A stretch of DNA of 49,107 nt from a virus (lineage: Duplodnaviria; Heunggongvirae; Uroviricota; Caudoviricetes), in IMG/VR virus record IMGVR_UViG_2563366861_000002; one strand, written 5' to 3'. Both the position numbers and the translations under genes were made by a program. The notes under the pieces were generated by a model. That model was not told the DNA's origin. It searched no databases and was given only the letters and a program-made list of their open reading frames with translations. This document shows, one piece after another, positions 1 through 38,155 of this stretch (position 1 is the first letter of the stretch; each line of letters opens with the position of its first letter).

Positions 1-1080
1 CTAAATCAGTAAGTTGGCAGCATCACCCAAAATTTGGGTATCAATTCCCTGCTCTCTGAACAATCGCTCTGATAAAGATCTCTGCTCATGGAAAGAGGGT
101 GGGGTGCCATTAGCACGCCAGTTGTAATCCACAGAATCCCGCGCTTTTTTAAATGCAACGGTTAACGTTGCTGGCTTAACCATCCCGCCGCGCTTAGCTG
201 TCCCTTTCGCGTGATGATGGTGCAATAGCCACGGACTAAGAACGCAATCGCGACAGGATGACACCACATCATCCAGGGTGAGATTTAATTTATCGCAACG
301 CAGAGCCAGAGGGATGGCAATCCGGGTTCCTGTTTTTTGCTGTTCGACATGAAGATAACCATCCCGGATATCCGAAAATTGCATTTTGCAAATATCTGAA
401 AGGCGCTGGCCTGTCATCAGTGCCAGCAGCATACCGCGCTGTAAAAAGTAACCATCCTTTTCCGCTGCGTTATAAATCATCGTCCACTCATCAAAAGTCA
501 GTCGCTGTCTTGATATCCGCACCTGTGGTTTTTTTGCCGATTCTGCAGGATTAAAGCCTGGCGGGGCATCGCCCGTTTGCTGAGCCTCCCGGAAAACATC
601 GATCAGTACCTTCCTGAAAATTTGTCCCATTCTGTTATGTCCTCTGGACTTGTACTCTTCCAGCACCGATACCACATCCTTTACGGTTATGGCATCTAAC
701 GGTCTGGTGCCAAAACGTTCATCAAAAACCCTGAGAGGGGCCGCTTTCTGTTTCAGCGTGTTGAGTTTGATTTCTCCGTTTTCATATCTTTCCTGTTGAA
801 TTTTTCTGTAATTATTCAGAAAAATGGAAACGGTTGATGAACCGCCGGTATCATTAATAATTTTCTCCTGCAGACTGAGCATTTGCTCCATTTGTTGTCT
901 GGCAAGACGGCTGTTCGCTTCTGCTGCAATGGTTTCCGCCAGTTTCTGGTCAATACTGCCGAGACCGTGATTTTTGCCTGTTATGGGATGCCTGTAACGC
1001 CAGTAAACTTTGTTATTTCTTTTGTCAAAATACGGAGATAATCCCGGAACATCGGTTTTATATTTTCGCGGGCGCGCCAT
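1..1080 (-). CDS. int: tyrosine integrase (lambda Int-like); C-terminus ends before the expected catalytic His/Tyr segment
   Basis: 359-aa ORF; collinear with lambda Int including box I (TGQRLSDI) and HxxR (FHEQRSL), but terminates ...ILGDAANLLI* where lambda Int continues LLGH...ASQY (catalytic Tyr). Stop codon is window positions 1-3. Confidence 0.85.
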   Translation of the reverse strand: MARPRKYKTDVPGLSPYFDKRNNKVYWRYRHPITGKNHGLGSIDQKLAETIAAEANSRLARQQMEQMLSLQEKIINDTGGSSTVSIFLNNYRKIQQERYENGEIKLNTLKQKAAPLRVFDERFGTRPLDAITVKDVVSVLEEYKSRGHNRMGQIFRKVLIDVFREAQQTGDAPPGFNPAESAKKPQVRISRQRLTFDEWTMIYNAAEKDGYFLQRGMLLALMTGQRLSDICKMQFSDIRDGYLHVEQQKTGTRIAIPLALRCDKLNLTLDDVVSSCRDCVLSPWLLHHHHAKGTAKRGGMVKPATLTVAFKKARDSVDYNWRANGTPPSFHEQRSLSERLFREQGIDTQILGDAANLLI

Positions 1081-1306
1081 CTTCCAGTATCCTCTTCAAA
1101 GCAGGGTGATCTGTGGCGATCACCTCCGGCTTGTTTACCATTCCGACAAAGCGAGCTTGCGGATCCACTCGCCAGCGTCTTCCAACTTTTTTGGGGAGAG
1201 GAAATATCATTCCGGCTTTAGCGTATTTACTTAACGTGCCCGGAGTAGGGACCGGTTCACTGAATTCCTCTTTTGCCCACTCAGTGAGCAGAATAAGTCT
1301 TGCCAT
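1058..1306 (-). CDS. xis: excisionase (Xis-like DNA-binding protein)
   Basis: 82-aa ORF overlapping int start as in lambda; LTEW...IFPLPKK resembles lambda Xis LTLQEW...IFPPPVK. Confidence 0.7.
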   Translation of the reverse strand: MARLILLTEWAKEEFSEPVPTPGTLSKYAKAGMIFPLPKKVGRRWRVDPQARFVGMVNKPEVIATDHPALKRILEDGAPAKI

Positions 1307-1427
1307 GGGCGTCGTTCGCTAATCATGGTCGCCGCCACTATAGCTGGTGGGCAACGACCGGGGTTGAACATTAAAAATCAGCCTGACTCGGGATCAGTTT
1401 TTGCCAGATAACTGAAACGTATTTTGC

Positions 1428-3842
1428 CTAGTAACGGGCGTCATCAAGTGCATTATGGCGCTCACCTTCGAATGGAATAGCCGTTCTGGCATCGAAGTCT
1501 ATGGCTTTCCCCAGCTCAACGATTGTGCGTACATCGCGATCGTTGTAGTAACGCCACGGGCAGGGGATCCCCTGCCGTTCGTATGAACGGCGCAAAATCG
1601 TGTTGTCGAAGTTGGCTCCATTTCCCCAAACCTGAACAAAAAATTCACCGGAGTTTTCGTCGATAAATTCCCGCAATTGTAACAGTGCATCATCTAACGG
1701 GATTTCATCGGTCATAATGGCAGATTGCGCTTCGCGTGATTGCTTAAGCCACCATTTAATGGTGTCCCGATCAATGACTCCGCCAGCAGTTTCCAGATCG
1801 ATAGTCTTACTAAATTCCGGTCCCATATCTCCGGTTTGCGGATCGAAAAATATTGCACCTATTGAGATGATCGGGGCATCAGGATTTTTTCCCATGGTTT
1901 CAAGGTCTATCATTAGATGGTCACACGTCCTGCTGGTGGATGTGATTACGTGATGACTGTTCACCTTAATTGAGTGATTTGCCGTCTCGCCAGTTTCATT
2001 ATCGCTATCGTGATGCTGATTGCCGCCAGTGTTCTCCTTGTGTGGATGTTCAGCGCCTTCCATTTCCTCCGGATCATCTTCCTGAACTTCAACCTGATAC
2101 TCTTCATCGAATGTTTCCTGGTATGTTGCGTCGCCCATCACCGCGCCACAATCAGGGCAATTGCCGCCGCCGGTCTGACCGCAGGCGGTGCAGACTTTTT
2201 CCACTTCCTGTTGCGCCACTGGTTCAGGCTGTTTCGTTTCTGGCTCGTTTTGTAACGCATTTGGGCTGTTTTGTTCCGCTTTTTGGTAGTTCCGTTCCGA
2301 TTCATGCTGGTTCTGGTTTACAGAATCGCGGGTCTGGATCCCCTTAACCCATTTCGGATCATTCGGGTCGCTAATCCCTGCAACAAATTCTCCGCGAGAG
2401 GCAGCAAGCAACTTATCGGCGTCAGGCTGGCTGATATTGGCTGCCTGCATAATTTTGTTTACTTCGTCAGCGGTAACTTTTACCGGCCCTGGTTGTGCGG
2501 TCGTGTCAGATGCACCAGTATTTTGTTGTGAACCTGAGTATGTACCGTTTTTGTGGGCGAAATATTCTTCTTTCGTGATTTCAGTAGCCCCGGCAGCCAG
2601 TGCCTTATCCAGACCAGAAAGTTTGTTTGCGCGACCGTATTTTTCGCCATCCTTGTCGGTGAAGAGGAAGTAGAACGGCCCCTCACGCTCTACAGATGGT
2701 TCGACTTCCACTTTGCATTCGGTTTTTTCGTTGTCCGGAATTGCCGTTTCCACTGCATCAGTTTCTGGTACTGGCGACGAGAGAGTATCAGTTGCGCTCT
2801 GATTTCTTCCTTCATCTTCAAACACGCCCTTTGTAGTCAGGTATTCAGTAATGTATTTGTTCAGTGCCACAGGGTCTTTGTGAATGTCGATCGGACGTTC
2901 ACGGACAAGGCCAAAAATAGTCTGGCGGTCGTAGCGAAGGGCATCAGGCTGTTTGCGCATTGATGCCGAGATACGCTTCCAGTCTTCGCGGTCGTTGTCG
3001 ATAACTTCATTTTTTGCCCAGCGATGGATGCTGCCGTCAATGTTTCCGGCATCCACATCACCAGGCCAGAGAGCGTAGGCCAGTTCGTCATCCAGTGTTT
3101 TCCATGTCTGCTTGTATTCGCGATGAATGGCAGCAATGACCAGGCTGATTTTTCCTGTTGAATTTTCAGTGTGCTGTTGATTGACTCTGGCGCGGGCGAG
3201 ATCAACAACAGACGTGTATTTTCCGGTTTCCTTGCGTTCACCTTCGCGACGTTTTTTCCAGATGCGCATCTCTGCCTGAATTTCGGGCCATTTGGCACCA
3301 GGCTTACATTTATGCTTAACCCACCCGATGGCATGCAGCTTAAGCTCCGGATACATGGCGTTAACATCTGGCATTTTCATCAACGCTTCAACGATATGTC
3401 CGTCGAATGTTGCCATGTCTTCCTGCAACAATTCCTGTGCGCTAATAACCATATCAACGGTGATGTTTTCACATGTGTCGAACTTAACCATGACAGCGTT
3501 CTGTACTTCAGGGGCCAGCTTGTCAAAAGTGACGTTCATCGGATCGGATTCAGTCTCAACCGGGACAAAGGAAGCAGACTCCTCATCCCAGCGGTTTTCC
3601 TGCATATATTCAGCATCCCAGGAATCGAGGGCAGGGCGGGGTATACCGGGTTTATCCTCGCAGACAAGAAATTTATAAGCGCAGTCCTGAGCAGCCGGAT
3701 AATGTTCCAGGAATTGCCAGTGAAATTTTGCGCGGGCGCGACGTTCATCACCGGCTTCAATGGCAGTGGCTACAGCGACGGCACCTTCTTCCTTTATTGC
3801 CTGTTCGTCCGGAATGGCGGCGCAAATAAAGACTTTACTCAT
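1428..3842 (-). CDS. large exonuclease-domain protein (DEDDh 3'-5' exonuclease fold at C-terminus, Cys4 zinc-ribbon in middle)
   Basis: 804-aa ORF; C-terminal motifs MIDLETMG (Exo I), GNGANFD (Exo II), HNALDDARY (Exo III) match DnaQ/RNase T-like DEDDh; CTACG...CPDCG zinc ribbon; acidic/Q-rich linker. Confidence 0.8.
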   Translation of the reverse strand: MSKVFICAAIPDEQAIKEEGAVAVATAIEAGDERRARAKFHWQFLEHYPAAQDCAYKFLVCEDKPGIPRPALDSWDAEYMQENRWDEESASFVPVETESDPMNVTFDKLAPEVQNAVMVKFDTCENITVDMVISAQELLQEDMATFDGHIVEALMKMPDVNAMYPELKLHAIGWVKHKCKPGAKWPEIQAEMRIWKKRREGERKETGKYTSVVDLARARVNQQHTENSTGKISLVIAAIHREYKQTWKTLDDELAYALWPGDVDAGNIDGSIHRWAKNEVIDNDREDWKRISASMRKQPDALRYDRQTIFGLVRERPIDIHKDPVALNKYITEYLTTKGVFEDEGRNQSATDTLSSPVPETDAVETAIPDNEKTECKVEVEPSVEREGPFYFLFTDKDGEKYGRANKLSGLDKALAAGATEITKEEYFAHKNGTYSGSQQNTGASDTTAQPGPVKVTADEVNKIMQAANISQPDADKLLAASRGEFVAGISDPNDPKWVKGIQTRDSVNQNQHESERNYQKAEQNSPNALQNEPETKQPEPVAQQEVEKVCTACGQTGGGNCPDCGAVMGDATYQETFDEEYQVEVQEDDPEEMEGAEHPHKENTGGNQHHDSDNETGETANHSIKVNSHHVITSTSRTCDHLMIDLETMGKNPDAPIISIGAIFFDPQTGDMGPEFSKTIDLETAGGVIDRDTIKWWLKQSREAQSAIMTDEIPLDDALLQLREFIDENSGEFFVQVWGNGANFDNTILRRSYERQGIPCPWRYYNDRDVRTIVELGKAIDFDARTAIPFEGERHNALDDARY

Positions 3843-3934
3843 TTTGTTTTACCTCATTACAGATTTAAGGGTGAACAAATCCCTGCCATTGCTGGCATAT
3901 AAGAATGAAACCGGATATTTATTACGGAACTGTT

Positions 3935-4135
3935 TTAAAGACCTGCCGGGATTTCGTTATTATCCTGGTGAATAACTTTATCGACCGGGTAACAGTTACC
4001 GGGAATTTTCTGTTCGGTTGCTGCAGTCACACACTCCTGCATTGTCCTGTGAACACTGACTGCAATATCAACTGGCTCTCCGGAAACAAGAAAAACTGTC
4101 AGAACAAGTGCAAATGCTGTATTCATTGCCAGCAT
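3935..4135 (-). CDS. hypothetical small secreted protein (signal-peptide-like N-terminus)
   Basis: Internal start MLAMNTAFALVLTVFLVSG... of the 81-aa ORF; hydrophobic N-terminus; AT-rich region; no homology recognised. Confidence 0.3.
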   Translation of the reverse strand: MLAMNTAFALVLTVFLVSGEPVDIAVSVHRTMQECVTAATEQKIPGNCYPVDKVIHQDNNEIPAGL

Positions 4136-4416
4136 CCTTTTTGTATCGGACGTAAACGGGCCAGCATTGAAAGAATGCATATTTTATTTAATAGCTCCCG
4201 TTCGTGTTTTCTCTTGTTAATGGCATCTTCAGTAAATACAGGGTTACTGATATTGACACCAATTTCAAAACAACCTTCAGACGTATTAACGTTTGGTAAT
4301 AACGTTTCCATTATCGCGTCCTCAACAATGAATTTTGTGATGCGGTGCCTGGTGCCTCCAGGTGACGTTAACCAGTTAACAATTAACGCCGGATACAGAG
4401 AATCCACCCATAACAC
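4123..4416 (-). CDS. hypothetical protein
   Basis: 97-aa ORF in AT-rich early-left region; better RBS (GAGGA) precedes internal start METLLP (4311); function unknown. Confidence 0.3.
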   Translation of the reverse strand: MLWVDSLYPALIVNWLTSPGGTRHRITKFIVEDAIMETLLPNVNTSEGCFEIGVNISNPVFTEDAINKRKHERELLNKICILSMLARLRPIQKGCWQ

Positions 4417-4873
4417 TGTTTTTGGTTTTAACTGTTCCGCGTGCGCTCAGCCGCATTCACCACATCACAAAATTCACTTTAAAAAGGGCGGCAGAGCAGT
4501 CACGGAGTAAAACTGATACCGCCAAACGTCACCAGAAAATTGATAACAGAGGGCGTTGCAGCGGGGTTGTCACTTAAGCGTATGGTCAACCTGACAACCC
4601 GGTGTCCTCAACGGGGGAAGGAATAACCCCGCCATACTTACCGCCGCGCCATTTCGCGGATTGCCACAACCGGAAGCGCACGGTCGACGAAAATTTAACG
4701 ACAGGCTATCTATGAACCAGCTACCTCGCCGTGCGCTTTCGCGTTATGGTCTGACTTTTCAGGGAAATATCCTTTCAGTAAACTGTCAGTGCCGGATGCT
4801 CACCCGTGTCCGGCGCACGCACTCCACCTCACCCGTGGAGAACTCCTTAATCACCAACCCTCAGGAGGGTGAA

Positions 4874-5149
4874 ATGTCGACTGAAAATGATGAAATCATT
4901 AACTCCCTGATACGCCAGATTAATAATTTTGATAAAGCATTGCAACATGCTGCGGCGCGTAGTGATATAACTCTTTTAGCAATTTCATTTCTTGCATCTG
5001 TTATGGATAAAAATGAAGTCGTACGACAGAGTCTTGTTGATTATATCGACTCGCTTCAACCCGGCACTTTCAATCATGAGAGCTTCAATCATGAGAAAGA
5101 GCATGTTAAGTCTGTAATTAATTCTCTTATTTTGAATCAAAAGAATTAA
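4874..5149 (+). CDS. hypothetical protein (AT-rich moron-like gene, opposite to early-left operon)
   Basis: ATG at 4874 preceded by GGAGGG RBS; 91 aa; visibly AT-rich; 3' end overlaps convergent gene 5127-5459 by 23 bp. Confidence 0.5.
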   Translation: MSTENDEIINSLIRQINNFDKALQHAAARSDITLLAISFLASVMDKNEVVRQSLVDYIDSLQPGTFNHESFNHEKEHVKSVINSLILNQKN

Positions 5150-5459
5150 TGCTTTTTGTTGCAAAGTAATTTTCAAGGGGTTCTATTCGAATCCCTTTCT
5201 TTTTCATTAACAAGCCAAACCCCTTATCAATGATGTCCATTAGATCCAGGAAGTATTTTTCATGTAAATCCTGGTTATCAGAGAGCTGCTTCTCTTCGTA
5301 CAGCCCGATAAAGGCTCGGCGTACGTTACCGGATATATTGTCGATGGTTTCTTTTTCTACGGTACTCAGGTCAAGAGTCGCCAGTTGAGAGCGAACCACA
5401 TTCGATGCCATTTCCTGGAATGGGACTGGTAAATCTTTAAATTCCATCGTCAACCTCAT
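5127..5459 (-). CDS. hypothetical protein (early-left operon)
   Basis: 110-aa ORF; start overlaps stop of upstream gene in ATGA arrangement (translational coupling). Confidence 0.5.
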   Translation of the reverse strand: MRLTMEFKDLPVPFQEMASNVVRSQLATLDLSTVEKETIDNISGNVRRAFIGLYEEKQLSDNQDLHEKYFLDLMDIIDKGFGLLMKKKGIRIEPLENYFATKSINSFDSK

Positions 5460-5692
5460 CAGTCAGTGTTTCTGGTTAACCAGCGACGTGCGCCAGCTTC
5501 AGTTTTAAACGTTTTGCTTCTGGTATATGTCATCGCGGTAAACGTGCCGTCCTGGTTGGGAAACACGCCGCATACCAGAGATTCGTTGTTGCCAAGCTCG
5601 ATAGTATCCATGCTGACCTCATTTCCCCTTAACGCCGGGGTAGCGGAACAAAAACCTGCTGCATAGTTATTAAAGTTGAACCCTGCCGTCAT
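5459..5692 (-). CDS. hypothetical protein, first gene downstream of leftward early promoter
   Basis: 77-aa ORF immediately downstream (leftward) of candidate PL/OL; not similar to lambda N. Confidence 0.55.
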   Translation of the reverse strand: MTAGFNFNNYAAGFCSATPALRGNEVSMDTIELGNNESLVCGVFPNQDGTFTAMTYTRSKTFKTEAGARRWLTRNTD

Positions 5693-5789
5693 GTTCTTAC
5701 GCCTCGGGCTGGCTACTTAACCCCTGACCACTGCCTGGTAACTCGAGGTATTGCCCTGTATTGTGTGGGACGGGATGGGTTGGTATGGG

Positions 5790-5836
5790 AAAACTATAGG
5801 AAATGCCTAATTACTTGTCAATAGGCTATGCCTAAT
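5790..5836 (-). promoter_or_regulatory. candidate leftward early promoter PL with operator OL
   Basis: Minus strand: -35 TTGACA (plus 5816-5821), 17-bp spacer, -10 TATAGT (plus 5793-5798); overlapped by palindrome TAGGCTATGCCTA (5822-5834) and half-sites GCCTAA. Confidence 0.5.
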
Positions 5837-5929
5837 AATTTGGGCGCAACCTAATAGGTGATGGTTTGTGGGAGAGGTAGTAGGAGTTAACTAACGGGAA
5901 CTAGGAATTTCCCGTCGGACCATATAAGT

Positions 5930-6406
5930 TTAAGTTCCTGTCTTGGTGATGTTCTGGCTTTTCCGTTTTGATTCTTGATTTTTCAGATAGTTAGCTACCT
6001 TCATTTCCATTGCGGCAATGTAGGCGCGAACGTCATGATCAACCCAACTAGGCTCCGTAGCATTTCCAGATAAGATGAAAGCCACAATTGCTCTTTTTTC
6101 ATCAGAGGCGGCTTGATAAAGGCTGTTTATGTCTAAAAGTTCACTTTTTGTATCTGAAGTGGATGGGGTTGGTATGGGGTATTCGTTAAGCCCCCAATGC
6201 TCTGGACCAACCACATCAGAAAAGAAACGCCATAGTTCTGGAAGTTTGTCTTTACTTATCGAACCTTTCTTAATCCAGTCATGGATTGATGGTGGTTGGA
6301 CTTTGAAATGACGTGCGATTTCCGCCTTTGATTTGACGGCTCCTGATGCAATTTTTTTGTTAATGGCCTGCTCTATCGCTCGGCCTAAGTCTTTACCACT
6401 AAGCAT
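5930..6406 (-). CDS. CI-type prophage repressor (RacR-like HTH protein)
   Basis: 158-aa ORF with N-terminal HTH (SKAEIARHFKVQPPSIHDWIKKG); divergent from Cro-like gene; flanked by operator palindromes; resembles my memory of E. coli RacR. Confidence 0.8.
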   Translation of the reverse strand: MLSGKDLGRAIEQAINKKIASGAVKSKAEIARHFKVQPPSIHDWIKKGSISKDKLPELWRFFSDVVGPEHWGLNEYPIPTPSTSDTKSELLDINSLYQAASDEKRAIVAFILSGNATEPSWVDHDVRAYIAAMEMKVANYLKNQESKRKSQNITKTGT

Positions 6407-6458
6407 TGCTTAATAGTCTCCTATGCGCATCGCGTTAGGCAATCCCTACTCTCGATGT

Positions 6459-6503
6459 ATTAGGCATAGCCTATTGACAATTTCATTAGGCTAAGCCTAA
6501 TAT
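6459..6503 (+). promoter_or_regulatory. candidate rightward early promoter PR with operators OR
   Basis: -35 TTGACA (6474-6479), -10 TAATAT (6498-6503); two 15-bp palindromes TTAGGC-N3-GCCTAA at 6460-6474 and 6487-6501 overlap -35 and spacer/-10. Confidence 0.55.
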
Positions 6504-6530
6504 TGTTGCGTGTTTTTTGGAGTTCATTCG

Positions 6531-6854
6531 ATGAAAAAAGATAACTATTCATTCAAACGAGCTTGTGCTGTTGTCGGTGGGCAATCAGCAATGGCTAGGC
6601 TTTTAGGTGTATCTCCTCCAAGCGTAAATCAATGGATCAAAGGTGTACGTCAGTTACCTGCTGAGAGATGTCCTGCGATTGAACGAGCAACAAAAGGTGG
6701 TGTCCTGTGTGAAGAACTTCGTCCTGATGTTGATTGGACATACTTACGACGCTCGTCATGTTATTCGCAGAATATGTCGATGAAGCAACCAAATGACGAA
6801 AACGATCATACCCGAAGCATCAAGAGGCAAATGATTCATGAAAATCAAACATGA
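6531..6854 (+). CDS. Cro/YdaS-like HTH protein
   Basis: ATG 6531 with GGAG RBS; HTH (QSAMARLLGVSPPSVNQWIKG); first gene of rightward operon, position of cro / Rac ydaS. Confidence 0.75.
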   Translation: MKKDNYSFKRACAVVGGQSAMARLLGVSPPSVNQWIKGVRQLPAERCPAIERATKGGVLCEELRPDVDWTYLRRSSCYSQNMSMKQPNDENDHTRSIKRQMIHENQT

Positions 6855-7263
6855 GCACATCCGCATGGCGATGAATGCCTGGGCATACCCTGATGGTGAG
6901 AAAGTTCCTGCAGCTGAAATAGCCCGGACTTATTTCGAACTGGGGATGACGTTCCCTGAACTGTACGACGACAGCCATCCGGAAGCCCTGGCCCGTAATA
7001 CCCAGAAAATTTTCCGTTGGCTGGATAAAGACACCCCTGATGCTGTTGAAAAAATGCAGGCTCTGTTACCGGCGATCGAAAAGGCGATGCCGCCTTTGCT
7101 GGTGGCCCGTATGCGCAGCCACAGTTCTGAATATTACCGTGAGATCGTCGAACGGAGGGATCGGCTGGTGAAGGATGTCGATGATTTTGTTGCGTCAGCG
7201 GTTGTTTTGTATGACCAGATGAATCGCGGCGGCCCGGCAGGGAATGCTGTGGTGATGCACTAA
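6838..7263 (+). CDS. YdaT-like protein (CII-position regulator / putative toxin)
   Basis: 141-aa ORF beginning MKIKHEHI..., matching my recollection of Rac YdaT; follows Cro-like gene. Confidence 0.7.
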   Translation: MKIKHEHIRMAMNAWAYPDGEKVPAAEIARTYFELGMTFPELYDDSHPEALARNTQKIFRWLDKDTPDAVEKMQALLPAIEKAMPPLLVARMRSHSSEYYREIVERRDRLVKDVDDFVASAVVLYDQMNRGGPAGNAVVMH

Positions 7264-7285
7264 AAGCACGGTGTTCGGGGGTTTT

Positions 7286-8248
7286 ATGAGCAGCAAGCTT
7301 CATGGTCTTGTCTGGGAAGGGTGCGCCTTCACCGGCATGATCTTATCCAGGGTGGCGGTTATGGCCCGTCTTGCAGACTACAGCAATGACGAGGGCGTGT
7401 CATGGCCTGCCATTGAAACTATCCGGCGTCAGATCGGTGCAAGAAGTGAATCCACAGTGAAATCGGCTATTGCAGAACTGGCGAAAGAGGGCTGGCTGAC
7501 GAAGGAAGAGCGTAAGGTCGGTGGGCGTAATGTAAGCAATATCTATCGGCTTAATGTGGAAAAACTCGAAGCAGCTGCGGCGGCGGCGCGTGAGTCATAT
7601 AAACCGAAAAGAAAAATTAGCCCGGCAAAAAATGACCCGTTAACAGTTGACCCGTCAAATATTGACCCCTCAACGGTTGACCCGTCAAATTTTGATGGAT
7701 CAACTGTTGATAAAAAACTGCCGATTAGGGGGGCGATGATTGACCCCGATCCGTCAGTATTAAAACCTGATCCGTCAGATAAAAGATCTTCTTGTCCGGA
7801 CGCTTCGCAACCGGACCCGCAGACGGCTGAACAGGATTTTTTAACCCGACACCCTGACGCGGTTGTGTTCAGTGCGAAAAAACGCCAGTGGGGAAGTCAG
7901 GAAGATTTGGTGTGCGCACAGTGGATCTGGGGACGAATCGTGAGTCTTTACGAGCAGGCGGCCAGCGATGATGGCGAGATCACTAGACCGAAAGAACCCA
8001 ACTGGACAGCATGGGCCAATGACGTTCGCACAATGCGGATGCTGGATGGCAGAACTCACAGACAAATTTGTGAAATGTTTGGGCGTCTCCAGCGGGATTC
8101 GTTCTGGGTAAAAAACATCATGAGTCCGGCAAAACTCCGGGAAAAATGGGATGAACTGGTTATCCGCCTGGGGCGTTCGCCTGCGCAGCGTTGCGTGAAT
8201 CACATTTCTGAACCGGACACTGAAATTCCGCCGGGCTTCAGGGGGTAA
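7286..8248 (+). CDS. replication initiation protein (lambda O-like / YdaU-like, winged-helix N-terminus)
   Basis: ~320-aa ORF; N-terminal winged-helix-like region; contains tandem iterons within its coding sequence like lambda O. Confidence 0.75.
   Translation: MSSKLHGLVWEGCAFTGMILSRVAVMARLADYSNDEGVSWPAIETIRRQIGARSESTVKSAIAELAKEGWLTKEERKVGGRNVSNIYRLNVEKLEAAAAAARESYKPKRKISPAKNDPLTVDPSNIDPSTVDPSNFDGSTVDKKLPIRGAMIDPDPSVLKPDPSDKRSSCPDASQPDPQTAEQDFLTRHPDAVVFSAKKRQWGSQEDLVCAQWIWGRIVSLYEQAASDDGEITRPKEPNWTAWANDVRTMRMLDGRTHRQICEMFGRLQRDSFWVKNIMSPAKLREKWDELVIRLGRSPAQRCVNHISEPDTEIPPGFRG
7632..7706. repeat. iteron array (candidate replication origin) inside the O-like gene
   Basis: Five ~15-bp direct repeats: ATGACCCGTTAACAG, TTGACCCGTCAAATA, TTGACCCCTCAACGG, TTGACCCGTCAAATT, TTGATGGATCAACTG, followed by A-rich TTGATAAAAAACTG. 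Confidence 0.55.
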
Positions 8249-8288
8249 GTGTTAATTTCTGGTCATGAGGTAATTTTCAGGAGGGCTT

Positions 8289-8711
8289 GTGGCAAAAGTT
8301 TTTACACAAGAAGAGCGGGAAAAAATTAAAGGGCAGGTTGTTGAACTCGTACGCCAGAGTGGGCGCGAGACGTTACGACAACTGGAAACTAAAACTGGGG
8401 CAACAAGATATCTGATGAGCGTTCTGGCCAGAGAGCTGGTTGCCAGTGGCGATGTATACAACTCTGGTTACGGGTTATTCCCGTCTGAACAGGCGCGTAA
8501 GGACTGGCAAAATGCCCGTAAAAAGCTCTCAAGGGCAAAGCTGAAGAAACCATCTGCGGTTGATCCGGACCTTATCTGGTCATTACCTGACGGAGAAATA
8601 CGTCGCTACGACAGGCGTCAGAACATAATCTGTCGCGAGTGCCGGAAGAGCGAAGTTATGCAGCGCATATTGTCGTTTTATCAGGGTAATTTTCAGAAGG
8701 TGCTGTTGTGA
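8289..8711 (+). CDS. hypothetical protein (replication-module position)
   Basis: 140-aa ORF, GTG start preceded by AGGAGGG RBS; occupies position of lambda P / Rac ydaV but no AAA+ motif seen. Confidence 0.55.
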   Translation: MAKVFTQEEREKIKGQVVELVRQSGRETLRQLETKTGATRYLMSVLARELVASGDVYNSGYGLFPSEQARKDWQNARKKLSRAKLKKPSAVDPDLIWSLPDGEIRRYDRRQNIICRECRKSEVMQRILSFYQGNFQKVLL

Positions 8712-8816
8712 GCCAAATTAACAATCGGAACTTCGTGAAGAGAAAGCATAATCCAAATCTGAATAATTAAGTTCAGCACTGTAAATAAAATTTAATCCTT
8801 AACTGGAGGTATATCT

Positions 8817-9029
8817 ATGTCAAATACACAGAAAATTATTAACACTGAAAAATATAACGAGTGGGTGAAAAAATTCTCTGAACAGATTTTTAAAATTACT
8901 GGCGACGAGAATGTGGCAAAAAATGAATTAGAACCGTGGACACCTGAAGGAAACGCACCAAATTATTGCTGGTGGGAAGTTGATCCGGTTGATGCTGCAA
9001 ATGAAGCCATGAGTTACCACAACGATTAA
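8817..9029 (+). CDS. hypothetical protein (nin-like region)
   Basis: 70-aa ORF with strong RBS (CTGGAGG) 7 nt upstream. Confidence 0.6.
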   Translation: MSNTQKIINTEKYNEWVKKFSEQIFKITGDENVAKNELEPWTPEGNAPNYCWWEVDPVDAANEAMSYHND

Positions 9030-9061
9030 TGTCGGGAGGCCGCCCGAAAGGGCGGTAAGAA

Positions 9062-9280
9062 ATGACTACATTATTCAGAAAAGAATATCCGCAAAAAAGT
9101 AGAGCGACAGAATTTTTGTTTCTCATTCTGTTTATCGTATTGATGATACCGATATCCCCTCTAATTTTTGTCTGGGCAATCGGGAAAATAATTGAGCCAG
9201 TTACTGAATTGTATACCGACGTTGTATGGGCGTCGTTCAACACACTGCACAATAAAATTAATCCGTATAAGGAAAACTGA
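9062..9280 (+). CDS. hypothetical small membrane protein
   Basis: 72-aa ORF with hydrophobic segment FLFLILFIVLMIPISPLIFVWAIG; stop adjoins next start. Confidence 0.4.
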   Translation: MTTLFRKEYPQKSRATEFLFLILFIVLMIPISPLIFVWAIGKIIEPVTELYTDVVWASFNTLHNKINPYKEN

Positions 9281-9281
9281 T

Positions 9282-9545
9282 ATGGCAACTTTGACAAAAA
9301 AAGAACGGGCATGGTTGAACGAATTACAGGAAGTTCTTGATCGCTGTCCATCACCGAAAAAAATTGGCTTTTACACCATTGGCGATAAAAGCATTTACCT
9401 GTATGACCTACGCCGCATGGATGAAATCATGGAGGCTCTTGATAATCGTTCGTCGATGGATTGGTGTGTTGCTGTTCATGATATGAATGCAGGGTTTGAT
9501 GAAAAGATTTTGTTCCCCTCATCAGTTGAAAGCACTGCGGGTTAA
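9282..9545 (+). CDS. hypothetical protein
   Basis: Internal ATG (MATLTKKERAWLNEL...) of the 117-aa ORF; 87 aa. Confidence 0.55.
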   Translation: MATLTKKERAWLNELQEVLDRCPSPKKIGFYTIGDKSIYLYDLRRMDEIMEALDNRSSMDWCVAVHDMNAGFDEKILFPSSVESTAG

Positions 9546-9555
9546 GGAGTAACAC

Positions 9556-9723
9556 ATGACCACTATTACCAAAGAACGTATTGAATTGTTCATTAAAAAC
9601 CCGCTTGAAAACGGGCTTACCCGTGGTGAACAAATGGAACTGGCACGGATTGCGCTGGCATCGCTGGAAGCAGAGCCGGTTGTGTTCTGGTTTGAAAAAT
9701 ATCAAGAAGGGGCTACGGCATGA
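9556..9723 (+). CDS. hypothetical small protein (paralogous to N-terminal part of next ORF)
   Basis: 55-aa ORF not in the track (<60 aa); AAGGAG RBS; shares motif [10 protein letters not shown] with [10 protein letters not shown] of 9720-10064; ATGA overlap with next gene. Confidence 0.45.
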
Positions 9724-10064
9724 CGACTTTTACCAGAGAGCAGTTAATAGCTCACGCAGAGGAGACTATTGAAGCACAGAGACTGTGCATACCGGGCACA
9801 ATCGACCATGACATCATCCGCACATATAAGATGGATATTGCTGTTCTGGAAATCGCACTGGTATCGCTGGCAGCAGAGCCAGCCGGTAAATTGCATGAAT
9901 ACAAACCAGTGGGATATCAGCGTCTGGTCGATGAGTTAACCATGCTGGTAAAGCAGTTAACCTGGCAACTGAGGAAAGCGAAGCCAGACTGCAAATTACC
10001 GGATAAGGCGATGAGTTATCTGGAGCGGAACGGACTGATAAGCGTGGAGGATATTTTACGATGA
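9720..10064 (+). CDS. hypothetical protein
   Basis: 114-aa ORF, translationally coupled to neighbours. Confidence 0.6.
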
Positions 10065-10144
10065 CCTGGCCTGAAGCATTAACAACGGTAGGAATTGCGA
10101 TGGCGGTGGCGCTGGTGGTGTATTCGATTTGCCGCTGGGGATAA
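10061..10144 (+). CDS. possible 27-aa hydrophobic peptide
   Basis: ATG overlaps preceding stop (ATGA); [27 protein letters not shown] is a single TM-like helix; very short, speculative. Confidence 0.3.
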
Positions 10145-10355
10145 AAACGGTTTGCGGGAAAAGGAGAGTTAAGTAGAATTGCAGCGGGTGCTTGAGGCTA
10201 TCTGTCTCAGGCATGAACACCAAAAGGCAGATAGAGAAAAGCCCCAGTTAACATTACGCGTCCGGCAAGACGCTTAACATTAATCTGAGGCCATATCTAT
10301 GCTCTACACACGTAGGTTAGCCTCTTACGTGCCGAAAGGCAAGGAGAAGCAGGCT

Positions 10356-10511
10356 ATGAAGCAGCAAAAGGCGATGCTAATCGCCCTGATCGTCATCTGT
10401 TTAACCGTCATTGTGACGGCACTGGTAACGAGGAAAGACCTCTGCGAGGTACGAATCCGAACCGGCCAGACGGAGGTCGCTGTCTTCACAGCTTACGAAC
10501 CTGAGGAGTAA
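10356..10511 (+). CDS. Hok/Gef-family type I toxin (small membrane toxin)
   Basis: MKQQKAMLIALIVICLTVIVTALVTRKDLCEVRIRTGQTEVAVFTAYEPEE matches Hok/Gef family signature (TM helix + LTRKxLCE...EVAxFxAYE); in-frame upstream ATG at 10299. Confidence 0.8.
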   Translation: MKQQKAMLIALIVICLTVIVTALVTRKDLCEVRIRTGQTEVAVFTAYEPEE

Positions 10512-10580
10512 GAGACCTGGCGGGGGAGAAATCCCTCGCCACCTCTGATGTGTCAGGCATCCTCAACGCACCCGCACTTA

Positions 10581-10610
10581 ACCCGCTTCGGCGGGTTTTG
10601 TTCTTTTTGT
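10581..10610 (+). terminator. rho-independent terminator
   Basis: CCCGCTTCGGCGGG hairpin followed by TTTTGTTCTTTTT; identical hairpin recurs at 11937-11966. Confidence 0.7.
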
Positions 10611-10755
10611 GAAAAAAATTCCCTTAAAGGAGATTTTTTTAACTAAAAAGGTTTACTTTGCTTTCGTATATGGTAAATTTTAGGAATTAGAATTTAAGCG
10701 CCCATCAGGCTTGCGTTAGGCAAGTCTGCTAAATCAACAAATTGAGGATAAAATC

Positions 10756-11115
10756 ATGGCACTCACTGAATTCGGTAAGGCCGTTAGAAAAGCGAGGATC
10801 GATACTGACAGTACTCTTCTGACTATGTCTCAAGAACTGGGCACTACGCCAGCGTTTCTTAGCGGTTTAGAAACTGGTAGCAAAAAAATACCTCTGAAGT
10901 GGGTTAAGAAGATTGATTCTTACTTCAAGGCCAAAGGTGTAGAAATTGAAGGGTTACAGGAGCTAGCGGCAGTTGCGAATGACTCAGTTCCAGTAAACGG
11001 TTTGTCTCAGCAACAGAAAATGCTTGTAGCGGGATTCGCTAAGTCGCAGTTTACGCCGGAACAGCTAAAGAGTTTTGCAGATTTATTGCAAAAGATTAAT
11101 AACAATGAGGGGTAA
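10756..11115 (+). CDS. XRE-family HTH transcriptional regulator
   Basis: 119-aa ORF; HTH (STLLTMSQELGTTPAFLSGLETG); GAGGA RBS; own promoter-like AT-rich upstream region. Confidence 0.8.
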   Translation: MALTEFGKAVRKARIDTDSTLLTMSQELGTTPAFLSGLETGSKKIPLKWVKKIDSYFKAKGVEIEGLQELAAVANDSVPVNGLSQQQKMLVAGFAKSQFTPEQLKSFADLLQKINNNEG

Positions 11116-15132: not shown

Positions 15133-16182
15133 ATGCTTAATACTGTAAAAATATCCAGTTGTGAGTTAATCAACGCCGACTGCCTGGAATTTATCCGGTC
15201 GTTACCCGAAAATTCTGTTGACCTGATAGTCACGGACCCGCCGTACTTTAAAGTGAAGCCTGAGGGCTGGGATAACCAGTGGAAGGGCGACGATGATTAC
15301 CTGAAGTGGCTGGACCAGTGTCTGGCGCAGTTCTGGCGGGTGCTGAAACCTGCCGGAAGTCTTTACCTGTTCTGTGGTCATCGCCTGGCATCTGATATCG
15401 AAATCATGATGCGTGAACGCTTCAGTGTGCTGAACCATATTATCTGGGCGAAGCCGTCCGGACGCTGGAACGGATGCAACAAGGAAAGCCTGCGGGCGTA
15501 TTTCCCCGCCACAGAGCGCATTCTGCTCGCGGAACATTATCAGGGGCCGTATCGTCCGAAAGATGCCGGGTATGCGGCGAAGGGCAGTGCACTGAAACAG
15601 CATGTGATGGCCCCGCTGATTTCTTACTTTCGTGATGCGCGCGCGGCCCTGGGGATAACGGCAAAACAGATTGCAGATGCCACAGGAAAGAAAAACATGG
15701 TGTCGCACTGGTTCAGTGCCAGTCAGTGGCAGCTACCGAACGAAAGCGATTATCTGAAATTACAGTCGCTGTTTGCCCGGGTGGCAGAAGAGAAACATCA
15801 GCGCGGTGAACTGGAAAAGCCCCACCACCAGCTGGTGGATACGTATACGTCACTGAACCGGCAGTATGTGGAGCTGCAGAGTGAATATAAGCATCTGCGG
15901 CGGTATTTTGGTGTGACGGCGCAGGTGCCGTACACGGATGTGTGGACACATAAACCGGTGCAGTTCTATCCCGGGAAACATCCGTGCGAAAAACCGGCAG
16001 AAATGCTGCAGCAGATAATCAGCGCAAGCAGTCGTCCGGGTGACCTGGTTGCAGATTTTTTTATGGGCTCAGGTTCAACGGTAAAAGCGGCACTGGCGCT
16101 CGGGCGTCGTGCGATTGGCGTTGAGCTGGAGACCGGACGTTTTGAGCAGACAGTCAGGGAAGTTCAGGATTTAATCGTTTGA
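15133..16182 (+). CDS. orphan DNA methyltransferase (beta-class amino-MTase, DPPY motif)
   Basis: 349-aa ORF; motif IV VTDPPYF near N-terminus and motif I FFMGSGST near C-terminus; no adjacent restriction endonuclease. Confidence 0.85.
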   Translation: MLNTVKISSCELINADCLEFIRSLPENSVDLIVTDPPYFKVKPEGWDNQWKGDDDYLKWLDQCLAQFWRVLKPAGSLYLFCGHRLASDIEIMMRERFSVLNHIIWAKPSGRWNGCNKESLRAYFPATERILLAEHYQGPYRPKDAGYAAKGSALKQHVMAPLISYFRDARAALGITAKQIADATGKKNMVSHWFSASQWQLPNESDYLKLQSLFARVAEEKHQRGELEKPHHQLVDTYTSLNRQYVELQSEYKHLRRYFGVTAQVPYTDVWTHKPVQFYPGKHPCEKPAEMLQQIISASSRPGDLVADFFMGSGSTVKAALALGRRAIGVELETGRFEQTVREVQDLIV

Positions 16183-16231: not shown

Positions 16232-16307
16232 GGCCCTTTAGCTCAGTGGTGAGAGCGAGCGACTCATAATCGCCAGGTCGCTGGTTCAAATCCAGCAAGG
16301 GCCACCA
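16232..16307 (+). tRNA. tRNA-Ile (anticodon CAT, ileX-like)
   Basis: 76-nt cloverleaf GGCCCTT...AAGGGCC-A-CCA; anticodon loop CTCATAA; near-identical to E. coli tRNA-Ile2 as I recall it. Confidence 0.85.
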
Positions 16308-16316
16308 TATCACATA

Positions 16317-16393
16317 CCACCATTAGCTCATCGGGATAGAGCGCCAGCCTTCGAAGCTGGTTGCGCGGGGTTCGAGTTCTCGATGGCGGTCCA
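16317..16393 (+). tRNA. tRNA-Arg (anticodon TCG), imperfect stems
   Basis: D-arm GCTC-ATCGGGATA-GAGC, anticodon stem CCAGC/GCTGG with loop CTTCGAA, T-loop TTCGAGT, 3' CCA; one acceptor mismatch and wobble-rich T-stem. Confidence 0.55.
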
Positions 16394-21938: not shown

Positions 21939-22559
21939 ATGAAAGATCAAGATGTTAGGTTCGCGGTGCATCATAAGCTTTTGAAAGAATCGCATTTAGA
22001 TCCAGACTGCCTTGTGGTCGATGAATTTTCCATATCCCTTGGCGCCAGTAGAGCAGACATTGCTGTAATAAATGGTGTTATACACGGGTACGAGCTCAAA
22101 AGTGAATATGACTCTTTGGAGCGTTTGCCTCTTCAAATCAAGCATTATTCTTCTGTAATGGACAAGGTTACTCTTGTCGTAGCTGAGAAACACCTTGAGG
22201 GAGCATTAAAGTTAATCCCAGGTTGGTGGGGCGTTAAAACGGTTTCTGTTGGGCCAAAAGGCGCCATTCTTATAAAGCACATGCGTGGAGAAAAGCTTAA
22301 TCGAAACCATGACACATTGATGCTCGCTCAATTGCTTTGGAAAGATGAATGTATCGACGTACTTGAACGATGGGGCTATTCCAAAGGAATCAAAAGCAAG
22401 CCCCGATTTGAGTTATGGAATATTATTGCGGAAAATATTCCAATAGCGAATCTCAGGCCTGAAGTCAGAACAGCCTTAAAGAAACGCGTAGGCTGGAAAG
22501 TTAAGGCTTGGCAGGCTGAGTCTGCGCCAACCAATAAAGCTGTCTCACGACTAACGTAA
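21939..22559 (+). CDS. predicted PD-(D/E)xK-fold nuclease-like protein (uncharacterised accessory gene)
   Basis: 206-aa ORF, AT-rich; own -10 TATAAT (21905-21910) and AAGGAG RBS; motif VVDEF...RADIAVINGVIHGYELK fits D...D...ExK nuclease core. Confidence 0.7.
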   Translation: MKDQDVRFAVHHKLLKESHLDPDCLVVDEFSISLGASRADIAVINGVIHGYELKSEYDSLERLPLQIKHYSSVMDKVTLVVAEKHLEGALKLIPGWWGVKTVSVGPKGAILIKHMRGEKLNRNHDTLMLAQLLWKDECIDVLERWGYSKGIKSKPRFELWNIIAENIPIANLRPEVRTALKKRVGWKVKAWQAESAPTNKAVSRLT

Positions 22560-23568
22560 TATGGTGCGTATGTGCAACTTTACGCCATTCTTTAGAGCCG
22601 CCAGATTTGTTAGCGCCTAATGATCTTTGGTAAATGTAATCATCCCCCCAACTAAATTTGGAGCCAAAGACTTGATACTCTGGCGAACTAACAAGGGTAG
22701 TACATAAGTTTTTAGTTTGGCCCCATCCATTTCCTTTAACTGCGGTACCTTTTACAAAGATCCATGAGGTATCGTTCGAATATCTCACTGAGACATACTG
22801 AGACATGAAGCGTGGGTCTACGCTCGTAATGGTAGAGCTAGCGGTGGGATAATCACTAAAACTTGGCGTTCTTCCATTGCTAAAATTCTGTACTACGTAC
22901 ATCCAAAGATCGTATTCATGGCGCGGAATATGATGAACTTGATGTTGCGGTATCCCTGCCTGTGATGCCGGGTATGCGGTTGAAGATAAAATCAAGTTTC
23001 TCCACGGAGCTTGGCCTGATAATGTGTTGACCATGCTTAATGCTTGTTGTTTTAAACTATCAGTTGCGTTTTGAATATCTCCAAAATCAATGATTACATC
23101 AATTAAACTAGGATGAATATTTAAGTGGTTAACCAGACTTGTGAATTGGTGCCATGTCTGGGGGGTGATAGACATAGCGAGCCCATTGATTAAGTTGCGT
23201 TGAACAGCATGTATATAGTTTGTTGAATATGCGGGAGAAACAACAGGGATAATTTCCTTACCATTTACTCTAGCATCTTGGATACACATATCTAGAGGAT
23301 GATGGCGGCTCGAACCATGTTTATCTAAATATTTAACATCCAGCAAAACAGGACGATTGGCTTTCCAGGATGCCGCAAGGTTAATACCGAAGTCAGATAA
23401 GTAAGAACTCAAACTCTTCTTGTAGCATTCGTTTTCATAATCCCAGTCTATGTCTGGAATGGTAATGATCGGAGTAAAACCAGAGAGCGTAGTTTGATCT
23501 AAAAGCATCAGAGATTCATATTCAGCAGGCTTCCATTTCAGCTGTGGATAATATTGATGTTGACTCAT
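22501..23568 (-). CDS. uncharacterised 355-aa protein, convergent partner of the nuclease-like gene
   Basis: AT-rich ORF with AAGGAG RBS and promoter-like upstream region; 3' end overlaps 21939-22559 by 59 bp on opposite strand; no catalytic motif recognised by eye. Confidence 0.7.
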   Translation of the reverse strand: MSQHQYYPQLKWKPAEYESLMLLDQTTLSGFTPIITIPDIDWDYENECYKKSLSSYLSDFGINLAASWKANRPVLLDVKYLDKHGSSRHHPLDMCIQDARVNGKEIIPVVSPAYSTNYIHAVQRNLINGLAMSITPQTWHQFTSLVNHLNIHPSLIDVIIDFGDIQNATDSLKQQALSMVNTLSGQAPWRNLILSSTAYPASQAGIPQHQVHHIPRHEYDLWMYVVQNFSNGRTPSFSDYPTASSTITSVDPRFMSQYVSVRYSNDTSWIFVKGTAVKGNGWGQTKNLCTTLVSSPEYQVFGSKFSWGDDYIYQRSLGANKSGGSKEWRKVAHTHHITLVVRQLYWLAQTQPAKP

Positions 23569-24521: not shown

Positions 24522-26421
24522 TTCTGCAGGAGCGATAGCAACCGGCCTCCTTGCGCTAAAAATTCCTGTCCCTCTGACGACAGTTCAGTGGGCAGATCGA
24601 CATTATTACCTTCCGAAAGAGTCATCTTACACCCCGGGGCGGTGGGAAACACTGCCGTTTCAGGTTGCCATCATGAACAGCATGGGGAATGACCGGATCC
24701 GCACTGTTAATCTGATTAAATCTGCCCGTGTTGGTTATACAAAGATGTTGCTGGGAGTGGAGGCTTATTTTATTGAGCATAAATCACGCAACAGCCTTCT
24801 TTTCCAGCCCACGGATTCTGCTGCTGAAGATTTTATGAAATCTCATGTGGAACCCACGATCAGGGATGTGCCGGTTTTACTCGATCTTGCACCGTGGTTT
24901 GGGCGTAAACATCGTGATAATACCCTCACGCTGAAACGTTTTTCATCGGGCGTGGGCTTCTGGTGCCTGGGCGGGGCTGCCGCTAAAAACTACCGTGAAA
25001 AATCCGTGGACGTGGTCTGCTATGACGAACTTTCCTCGTTCGAACCGGATGTCGAAAAAGAGGGTTCGCCAACCCTGCTTGGGGATAAACGTATTGAGGG
25101 CTCTGTATGGCCCAAATCCATTCGCGGCTCGACGCCTAAAATCAAAGGCACCTGCCAGATCGAAAAAGCGGCCAACGAGTCGGCGCATTTCATGCGTTTT
25201 TATGTGCCCTGCCCACACTGTGGGGAGGAGCAGTATCTGAAATTTGGCGATGAATCCACGCCTTTTGGCCTTAAATGGGAGAAGGACAGCCCCGAAAGCG
25301 TTTTCTACCTCTGTGAACATCATGGCTGCGTGATCCATCAGTCTGAGCTTGACCAGAGCAACGGGCGGTGGATCTGTGAAAACACGGGGATGTGGACCCG
25401 TGACGGTCTGACGTTTTTCAGCGCCGCGGATAATGAAATTCCGCCGCCGCGCTCCATCACGTTCCATATCTGGACGGCGTACAGTCCGTTCACCACCTGG
25501 GTACAGATAGTCTATGACTGGCTGGATGCACTGAAAGATCCCAACGGCCTGAAAACCTTTGTGAACACCACGCTGGGCGAGACCTGGGAAGAGGCCGTGG
25601 GCGAAAAACTCGATCACCAGGTACTGATGGATAAGGTCGTGCATTACACGGCGGCGGTGCCAGCCCGGGTGGTTTATCTGACGGCGGGCATTGACTCGCA
25701 GCGAAACCGTTTTGAGATGTATGTCTGGGGATGGGCACCGGGAGAGGAAGCTTTTCTGGTGGATAAAATCATCATTATGGGCCGTCCCGATGAGGAAGAG
25801 ACGCTGTTACGTGTGGATGCGGCGATCAACAAAAAATACTGCCATGCAGACGGAACCGAAATGACCATTTCCCGTGTCTGCTGGGACACCGGGGGGATCG
25901 ATGGTGAAATTGTCTATCAGAGGTCAAAAAAACACGGTGTTTTCCGGGTGCTGCCGGTAAAAGGCGCATCTGTCTATGGCAAGCCGGTGATCACCATGCC
26001 GAAAACCCGCAATCAGCGGGGCGTGTATCTGTGTGAAGTGGGGACGGACACCGCAAAAGAAATTCTCTATGCCCGTATGAAAGCCGATCCCACGTCTGCG
26101 GATGAAGCCACGTCGTATGCCATCCGTTTTCCTGATGATCCGGAGATTTTTTCGCAGACAGAGGCGCAGCAACTGGTCGCGGAAGAGCTTGTGGAGAAGT
26201 GGGAAAAAGGAAAGATGCGTCTGCTGTGGGATAACAAAAAGCGGCGTAACGAAGCGCTGGACTGCCTGGTGTATGCCTATGCGGCATTACGTGTGTCCGT
26301 GCAACGCTGGCAGCTTGATCTGGCTGTACTGGCAAAATCCCGGGAAGAAGAGACGACCCGGCCAACCCTTAAAGAACTGGCAGCGAAGCTGTCCGGAGGA
26401 GTGAATGGTTACAGTCGCTGA
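24493..26421 (+). CDS. A: terminase large subunit A
   Basis: ~642 aa; extensive identity to lambda gpA ([12 protein letters not shown]..., [10 protein letters not shown]..., [18 protein letters not shown]); overlaps nu1 3' end. Confidence 0.9.
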
Positions 26422-26611
26422 ACTACAGGCGCTGCGTCAGGCGCGCCTTGATTTATTAACCGGTAAACGGGTGGTGTCTGTCCAGAAAGATGGTCGCAGA
26501 ATTGAATATACGGCGGCTTCTCTGGATGAGCTTAACCGGGCGATCAATGATGCGGAGTCGGTACTGGGGACAACCCGACGTCGCCGTCGTCCGCTGGGAG
26601 TGAGGTTATGA
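26405..26611 (+). CDS. W: head-tail connector protein W
   Basis: 68 aa; TGKRVVSVQKDGRRIEYTAASL matches lambda gpW. Confidence 0.85.
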   Translation: MVTVAELQALRQARLDLLTGKRVVSVQKDGRRIEYTAASLDELNRAINDAESVLGTTRRRRRPLGVRL

Positions 26612-29695: not shown

Positions 29696-29731
29696 AGTCA
29701 GTGCTGAACATCAATACGAGGTTTTAACAAT

Positions 29732-30079
29732 ATGGTGACGAAAACCATCACTGAACAGCGTGCGGAAGTACGTATTTTTGCCGGTAATGATCCGGCTCAC
29801 ACCGCCACAGGCAGCAGCGGGATTTCCTCGGCAACACCGGCACTGACACCCCTGATGCTGGATGGGGCCACCGGGAAACTGGTGGTCTGGGACGGACAGA
29901 AAGCCGGTAGTGCGGTTGGCATACTGGTACTGCCGCTTGAAGGCACAGAGGCGGTGCTGACCTATTACAAGTCGGGGACCTTTGCGACGGAGGCAATCCG
30001 CTGGCCTGAAAGTGTGGATGAACACAAAAAGGCCAACGCCTTTACCGGCAGTGCCCTGAGTCACGCGGCGCTGCCGTAA
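29732..30079 (+). CDS. D: head decoration protein D
   Basis: 115 aa; DPAHTAT...PLMLD...VGIL...YKSGTF matches lambda gpD. Confidence 0.85.
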   Translation: MVTKTITEQRAEVRIFAGNDPAHTATGSSGISSATPALTPLMLDGATGKLVVWDGQKAGSAVGILVLPLEGTEAVLTYYKSGTFATEAIRWPESVDEHKKANAFTGSALSHAALP

Positions 30080-30136
30080 CACGTTATCAGGCCACCGCGT
30101 TGGCCTGACTGATTTCTTAATGAAAGGAACTGATTT

Positions 30137-31165: not shown

Positions 31166-31216
31166 TCCGTGAGCGGGGGCGAAATGCCCCCGTGTCTTTT
31201 TTCACAGGAGGCTGAG

Positions 31217-31600
31217 ATGGCAACAAAAGAAGAAAATCTGAATCGTCTTCGTCAACTGGCTGGCCTGCTGGGGCGCGAGGCGGATATGTCGGGGAGTGCT
31301 GCGGATATTGCGCAACGTGTGTCTGAGTGGGAAGAGGAGCTTGCTGTTTCCCCGGAGGGCATTATGCACTCTGATGAGAGCGGGGCTGATCAAAATCACA
31401 CAGACGATGGTGAGCAGTTGAACAACACGGATGCTCCGGATGATGTTAAAGCCGTCCGGGTACGGAAGTGCCTGCAAGTAATGGGGTATTGCCCGGAGAC
31501 AGGTCGTCCCGTTGAGCTGGCGTTACGGGGTATGCGTGTTCTGGTGCCATCATCACTGGCAACGGCCATGATACAGCACGGAACGGCTGAATATGCGTGA
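31217..31600 (+). CDS. FI: DNA packaging protein FI
   Basis: Internal ATG with AGGAGG RBS; acidic 127-aa protein at FI position. Confidence 0.7.
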   Translation: MATKEENLNRLRQLAGLLGREADMSGSAADIAQRVSEWEEELAVSPEGIMHSDESGADQNHTDDGEQLNNTDAPDDVKAVRVRKCLQVMGYCPETGRPVELALRGMRVLVPSSLATAMIQHGTAEYA

Positions 31601-31946: not shown

Positions 31947-31960
31947 ACGCAGGGTGAATT

Positions 31961-32928: not shown

Positions 32929-32935
32929 GGACGAT

Positions 32936-33688: not shown

Positions 33689-33701
33689 ACGGAGGTAATA
33701 C

Positions 33702-34133: not shown

Positions 34134-34159
34134 ACTTTGCCCTCAGACTGGCGCGTGAG

Positions 34160-38151: not shown

Positions 38152-38155
38152 TCCC

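Follow-up and report, generated by a model that had tools for sequence, protein, structure and literature searches.

Evidence that IS1 insertion separated the catalytic tyrosine codon from the integrase gene of a lambda-like prophage at the ompW locus of Escherichia coli

The window (the whole 49,107-nt stretch of DNA analysed here) represents a lambda-like prophage of the PPompW type, at whose left end the integrase gene int and the excisionase gene xis are encoded on the minus strand. Its source is scaffold KB732958.1 of the draft assembly GCA_000352045.1 (L003 below), which is identical to window positions 1-11080 and continues to the left of the window. The features on which the analysis is based are as follows, with coordinates referring to the window unless another sequence is named.

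1-27, minus strand: outermost 27 bp of IS1 with its left inverted repeat GGTGATGCTGCCAACTTACTGATTTAG; the remaining IS1 sequence is found left of the window
28-35, minus strand: prophage-side copy of the target-site duplication AAATTTTG, in the region of int codons 349-351
1-1080, minus strand: Int open reading frame of 359 aa, with the C-terminus FHEQRSLSERLFREQGIDTQILGDAANLLI / PPSFHEQRSLSERLFREQGIDTQILGDAANLLI followed by TAG (from the ORF list)
28-1080, minus strand: native part of the integrase, codons 1-351 of 376, defined by Pfam, by alignment with lambda Int and by 100% identity to int of strain JKHS016
403-405, 334-336, 88-90 and 79-81, minus strand: codons of the catalytic residues R226, K249, H331 and R334, respectively, present in the Int ORF according to the lambda alignment
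1058-1306, minus strand: intact xis, an excisionase of 82 aa (Pfam Exc, PF07825), overlapping the start of int
1428-49107: remainder of the lambda-like PPompW-type prophage, with the early region, Q, the lysis cassette and the late genes
L003 11054-11558: IS1 in the source scaffold, from the left repeat (window 1-27) to the end of the right repeat
L003 11559-11566: far copy of the duplication AAATTTTG, beyond IS1 and outside the window
L003 11781-11808: attL, 28-bp core CAGTGTGGTACATGGATATCGATACCAC, 701-728 bp to the left of window position 1 when counted in scaffold coordinates
L017 15204-15231: attR, 28-bp core CAGTGTGGTACATGGATATCGATACCAC, identical to the attL core and located 310-337 bp past the right end of the window

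The TAG stop codon of the Int ORF is the reverse complement of window positions 1-3, in agreement with the preliminary description of this DNA, which had placed the stop inside the window and excluded an edge artefact. The native part of the gene encodes the arm- and core-binding domains and the greater part of the catalytic domain. The arm-type domain is recognized by Pfam (PF09003, Arm-DNA-bind_1; residues 2-71, E 8.1e-22), whereas the match to the Phage_integrase family (PF00589) covers only positions 2-150 of the 172-position profile and ends at residue 351. Similarly, the alignment with the lambda Int structures (PDB 1z1g and 5j0n; E 4.5e-48) reaches only residue 324 of 356. The two proteins have the three-domain architecture in common, and R226, K249, H331 and R334 of the ORF correspond to R212, K235, H308 and R311 of lambda Int; thus, the box I arginine, the lysine and the HxxR motif of a lambda-type tyrosine integrase are all present. 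In contrast, box II, comprising the second histidine and the tyrosine nucleophile (LLGH...Y), is absent. The last tyrosine of the ORF, Y319, lies upstream of HxxR (H331, R334), and no Tyr or His was found when the ORF was scanned downstream of this motif. Compared with lambda Int, the ORF ends at the equivalent of L331 and is devoid of H333, Y342 and the C-terminal tail. The absence of the catalytic tyrosine segment had been noted in the preliminary description, where alignment to lambda-family integrases was proposed as a check and a profile alignment placing a catalytic Tyr and a second His inside the ORF as a refutation; neither residue is there.

The final residues of the ORF have a different origin. 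In the int frame, window positions 1-27 encode GDAANLLI and the TAG stop. When window positions 1-1320 were compared by megablast with 5426 complete E. coli genomes (1865 matching records), all of the matches listed began at base 28, two of them being 100% identical over positions 28-1320. As none of the listed E. coli matches extends into bases 1-27, this segment does not belong to int. Its bases are identical to positions 1-27 of a 768-bp IS1 copy from strain EC96 (L021 760-1527), which is annotated as "IS1-like element IS1B family transposase", resides in ompF, is likewise flanked by an 8-bp repeat and served as our reference. Because these bases are an IS1 end, GDAANLLI and the following stop represent IS1 sequence rather than a diverged integrase. 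The preliminary description had missed the IS1 origin of the last 27 bases and had taken GDAANLLI as the point where lambda Int continues with GHKSDTMA, while these residues are in fact the translated IS1 inverted repeat and the native int sequence in the window ends at L351.

The source scaffold contains the remainder of this element and of the integrase gene. Going left from the window, it carries IS1, AAATTTTG, CTGGGTCATTCGAATCAAAAAATGACCGATATTTACAACGATGCACGCGGCAAGGAGTGGAAAAAACTGGTCATTTGA, the attL region and the 3' end of ompW, in this order. Within IS1 follow the InsA zinc-ribbon ORF, a 75-N gap, the DDE_Tnp_IS1 ORF and the right inverted repeat; the two ORFs were assigned by Pfam (Zn_ribbon_InsA and DDE_Tnp_IS1), and terminal inverted repeats GGTGATGCTGCCAACTTACTGAT / GGTAATGACTCCAACTTATTGAT are found at both ends of the element. 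The inverted repeats and the insA/insB' flanking segments are 100% identical to the annotated IS1B copy (IS1 family, 768 bp) over all readable parts, i.e., reference positions 1-212 and 551-768, while the middle of the copy described here (positions 213-550) falls in the N gap and is unread in the draft. It should be noted that this gap (L003 11266-11340) is shorter than the missing 338 bp of IS1, and therefore scaffold coordinates understate the distance between the window and attL by about 263 bp. Because the draft gap is inside IS1, a length of 768 bp with no additional DNA between its ends is an assumption.

In the scaffold, the two junctions read CAAATTTTG|GGTGATGCTGCC...(IS1)...GAGTCATTACC|AAATTTTGCTGGGTCATTCGAATCAAAAAATGACCGATATTTACAAC...TGA; that is, int is interrupted as CCCAAATTTTG|IS1|AAATTTTGCTGGG, compared with CCCAAATTTTGCTGGG in the intact allele. 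Since AAATTTTG occurs on both sides of IS1 and only once in the intact allele, it represents an 8-bp target-site duplication, as expected for IS1 with its short direct target duplications of 8-9 bp; the target is A/T-rich. The last 25 int codons (LGHSNQKMTDIYNDARGKEWKKLVI*) are displaced to the far side of IS1, where they lie next to attL and ompW. In silico deletion of IS1 together with one copy of the duplication yields an int gene of 1131 bp with no mismatches to that of strain JKHS016 (WP_032179013.1, 376 aa), which was used as the intact reference, and the next 800 bp, including the int 3' end, attL and ompW, also show no mismatches to JKHS016. The intact Int aligns with lambda Int over lambda residues 12-354 (E 2e-55) with conservation of R, K, HxxR, H and Y: its segment ILLGHSNQKMTDIYNDARGKEWKKLV falls on HLLGHKSDTMASQYRDDRGREWDKIE of lambda Int, and LLGH354 and Y363 correspond to LLGH333 and Y342. 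In lambda Int, Tyr342 acts as the nucleophile, forming the 3'-phosphotyrosyl link (PMC4880445). Because H354 and Y363, which are missing from the ORF, are encoded beyond IS1, the Int ORF is a disrupted gene and not a functional member of the family. A naturally short or divergent integrase was considered and rejected, as the missing codons are intact behind IS1. In annotation, the gene thus should be described as an IS1-interrupted int pseudogene rather than a novel short integrase.

The other components needed for excision appear in order. The xis gene is 100% identical to a region annotated as encoding the excisionase WP_000113187.1. The prophage is integrated at the 3' end of E. coli ompW; attL is bordered by ompW itself and attR by a fragment of the ompW 3' end. 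The phage brings a diverged copy of the ompW 3' end, about 121-126 bp long and 78-81% identical; downstream of the 28-bp core, it substitutes roughly the last 100 bp of ompW at 78% identity, and for this reason ompW stays intact after integration. With the attL/ompW region as a query, only chance matches of 10-12 bp were obtained inside the window for attR, and both att sites are located just outside it; attR was located in the source scaffold sequence reached through the tail-fibre protein (L017). Both window edges are stop codons, which suggests that the window was cut on gene boundaries. The core-to-core length of the element is about 50 kb, i.e., lambda-sized. The preliminary description had recommended inspecting the sequence left of the window for the displaced int 3' end and attL, and both were found in the source scaffold.

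Altogether, it is almost certain that IS1 transposed into int of an ompW-integrated lambda-like prophage, thereby removing the segment with the catalytic tyrosine. In this scenario, IS1 entered between codons 351 and 352 of 376, 25 codons before the end of the gene, duplicating 8 bp of the target (AAATTTTG). As the window begins 27 bp inside IS1, the int frame reads eight IS1 codons and then the TAG of IS1, and the codons for H354 and Y363 are displaced across IS1, next to the intact attL and ompW. The truncated Int is predicted to still bind arm and core sites; having lost its nucleophile, it should be unable to cleave DNA and to form the 3'-phosphotyrosyl intermediate, and because of that the prophage is probably unable to excise or re-integrate unaided. 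Failure to excise should be expected by analogy with the prophages Sp3, Sp11 and Sp12 of strain Sakai. With respect to excision, nothing but the last 25 residues of Int is missing, as xis and both att sites are intact. An induced excision-defective lambda lysogen is expected to undergo in situ replication and cell killing. Three ways of rescue can be envisaged: a related Int could act in trans, recombination with another lambdoid phage could restore int, or IS1 could be lost precisely, in rare cases, via the 8-bp repeats. Since the target duplication and the int 3' end are both intact, the lesion is in principle reversible.

The first of these ways would also underlie a different reading, in which the prophage is functionally not grounded because a second, closely related Int encoded elsewhere in the genome acts in trans and the effect of IS1 is small. 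Only the enzyme is missing, xis and both att cores being intact; complete E. coli genomes hold up to three places matching this int; and complementation between prophages has been documented in O157 Sakai (PMC2669165). We nevertheless regard such complementation as unlikely, given that the median copy number is one per genome having this int and that no circles were obtained from the three int-disrupted prophages of Sakai, even though many other lambdoid prophages reside in that strain (PMC2669165). The truncated Int retains four of the six catalytic residues and both the arm- and core-binding domains. It seems very improbable that it is kept as a catalytically dead, dominant-negative att binder that blocks integration or excision of incoming PPompW-type phages, or that precise loss of IS1 serves as a reversible re-arming switch.

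There is also a very slim chance that int is really intact and the junction is an artefact of assembly or scaffolding, with a contig end wrongly attached to an IS1 repeat. Assemblies classically go wrong at IS copies, and the scaffold is a short-read draft with an N gap inside IS1; however, both IS1-int junctions are read through and carry the matching 8-bp direct repeat, a signature of real transposition, and int is reconstituted exactly from the two. Moreover, a contig from a separate assembly of SRR639983 (L004), made with a different assembler, ends in the same left int-IS1 junction, these reads possibly being from the same strain. Finally, the preliminary description had offered remodelling of the 3' end at the attachment junction as an alternative. 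Read as a loss of the C-terminal codons by imprecise recombination or deletion at attL, this accounts for the truncated ORF itself and nothing more, and it is refuted by the source scaffold. Beyond IS1, which is cleanly inserted with its 8-bp duplication, the scaffold retains the 25 missing codons with their stop codon, attL and ompW; this flank is unchanged and identical to the intact locus. As these codons are intact, a deletion at attL was rejected. Moreover, the insertion point is 78 nt inside int, at a distance of about 214 bp from the att core.

Having favoured transposition of IS1 into int, we turn to the rest of the prophage. The early region includes the genes for an exonuclease, dicB and racR/ydaS/ydaT, and the late region those for terminase, portal, protease, capsid, tail, J, lom and tail fibre proteins. 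Strong PHROGs matches were obtained for nine late proteins (terminase small and large subunits, portal, protease, major head, major tail, tape measure, J and tail fibre), spanning all or almost all of the ORF in six of the nine. In RefSeq, the annotation of a prophage with 99.98% identity lists the lysis cassette, Q, RusA and racR/ydaS/ydaT as intact genes. No lesion other than int::IS1 was seen in the parts examined, and the prophage looks otherwise complete. The preliminary description had likewise regarded the rest of the prophage as intact and had suggested a recently grounded prophage as one of two possibilities; the intact xis, att cores and nine late genes can be added to this, and the picture of a grounded prophage, defined by loss of recombinase function or att sites, fits at the sequence level, where the nucleophile is lost and the att cores are intact.

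Several other features of the prophage were observed in passing. Adjacent to xis (1428-3842, minus strand) is a gene for an 804-aa "exonuclease" whose Pfam matches are YdfE_N, YdfE_C and, at the C-terminus, an Rv2179c-like 3'-5' exonuclease domain. The middle of this protein is long, acidic and of low complexity, and no PADLOC match was found for the protein. The interval separating the lysis cassette from the terminase genes contains an overlapping convergent gene pair (21939-23568), which encodes a 206-aa P4 cII-like protein ("sce7726 family" in RefSeq) and a 355-aa "beta family protein". The PADLOC models matched by the pair are cll (E 4e-31), beta (E 3e-10) and PD-Lambda-2_C (E 4e-32, C-terminal half only), and the two genes may constitute anti-phage defence cargo. 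Downstream of a DNA methyltransferase gene (15133-16182), there are two phage tRNA genes (16232-16393). The first of them was identified by ARAGORN as tRNA-Met (CAT), whereas the same gene in JKHS016 is annotated in RefSeq as tRNA-Ile, which presumably reflects lysidine modification of the CAT anticodon; the second one encodes tRNA-Arg (TCG).

An int of 1131 bp without interruption is present in 1720 of the 5426 complete E. coli genomes, with carriers including O157:H7 EDL933, O104:H4 C227-11 and an ST131 strain. The copy number per carrying genome has a median of one and ranges up to three, and only eight matching records in the same genome set cover less than 80% of the gene. No place covering at least 80% of window positions 1-70, which span the int::IS1 junction, was found in these 5426 genomes, and the allele looks rare and strain-specific. 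Perfect identity of the reconstituted int to an intact allele suggests that the insertion is recent, and the lesion looks recent also because xis, both att cores and the nine late genes tested are intact. The prophage provides a clean, datable example of the first step of prophage domestication, with one lesion and the rest examined intact. No open question becomes testable through int::IS1, and its value is mainly for annotation and for the reading of this genome.

Among relatives, the ompW prophage of strain JKHS016 (L005; NZ_CP147059.1, 1769700-1819690) shares window positions 28-26290 and 45976-49107 at 99.98% identity and retains an intact int. The intervening 19.7 kb (window positions 26291-45975) are absent from it, as a result of which its large terminase gene is fused to the tail-fibre gene. 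Judged from their sequences, these are two near-identical prophages disabled by different single lesions, int::IS1 in the window and loss of 19.7 kb of head and tail genes in JKHS016. L016 (GCA_052185235.1) appears to have lost a different segment, which extends from terminase through the end of J.

PPompW prophages were described by Nakamura et al. (2021) as lambda-like prophages integrated in ompW of E. coli (PMC8112680), with membership defined by an Int of more than 90% identity over more than 90% of the length and by integration in ompW. The reconstituted Int is 98.1% identical to PPompW intE over 100% of its length and is encoded next to xisE, and the element is integrated in ompW; it therefore belongs to this type. 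The att site of PPompW is about 121 bp (PMC8112680), and that of the present prophage matches it. The integration site and the replacement of the ompW 3' end by a diverged copy are common to both, and the late genes are lambda-like in the window prophage as well. The 21-bp secondary attB that lets Stx2a phages integrate into PPompW prophages of O145:H28 (PMC8112680) was searched for as GTCATGCAGTTAAAGTGGCGG and is absent from the whole window with up to two mismatches allowed. In comparison with the PPompW prophages described there, the late and lysis genes of the window prophage look intact, and int is the broken gene.

Disruption of a prophage integrase by an IS element is a known kind of event and an ordinary route to a grounded prophage, a concept (Ramisetty and Sudhakari, 2019; PMC6379469) that covers the same case. 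In O157 Sakai, Sp3, Sp11 and Sp12, whose int genes are disrupted, were predicted to be unable to excise, and no circular forms of them were found (Asadulghani et al., 2009; PMC2669165). Like the window prophage, these are lambdoid prophages with a disrupted int; however, the Sakai prophages have many further defects, whereas int::IS1 is the sole lesion seen in the parts of the window prophage that were examined.
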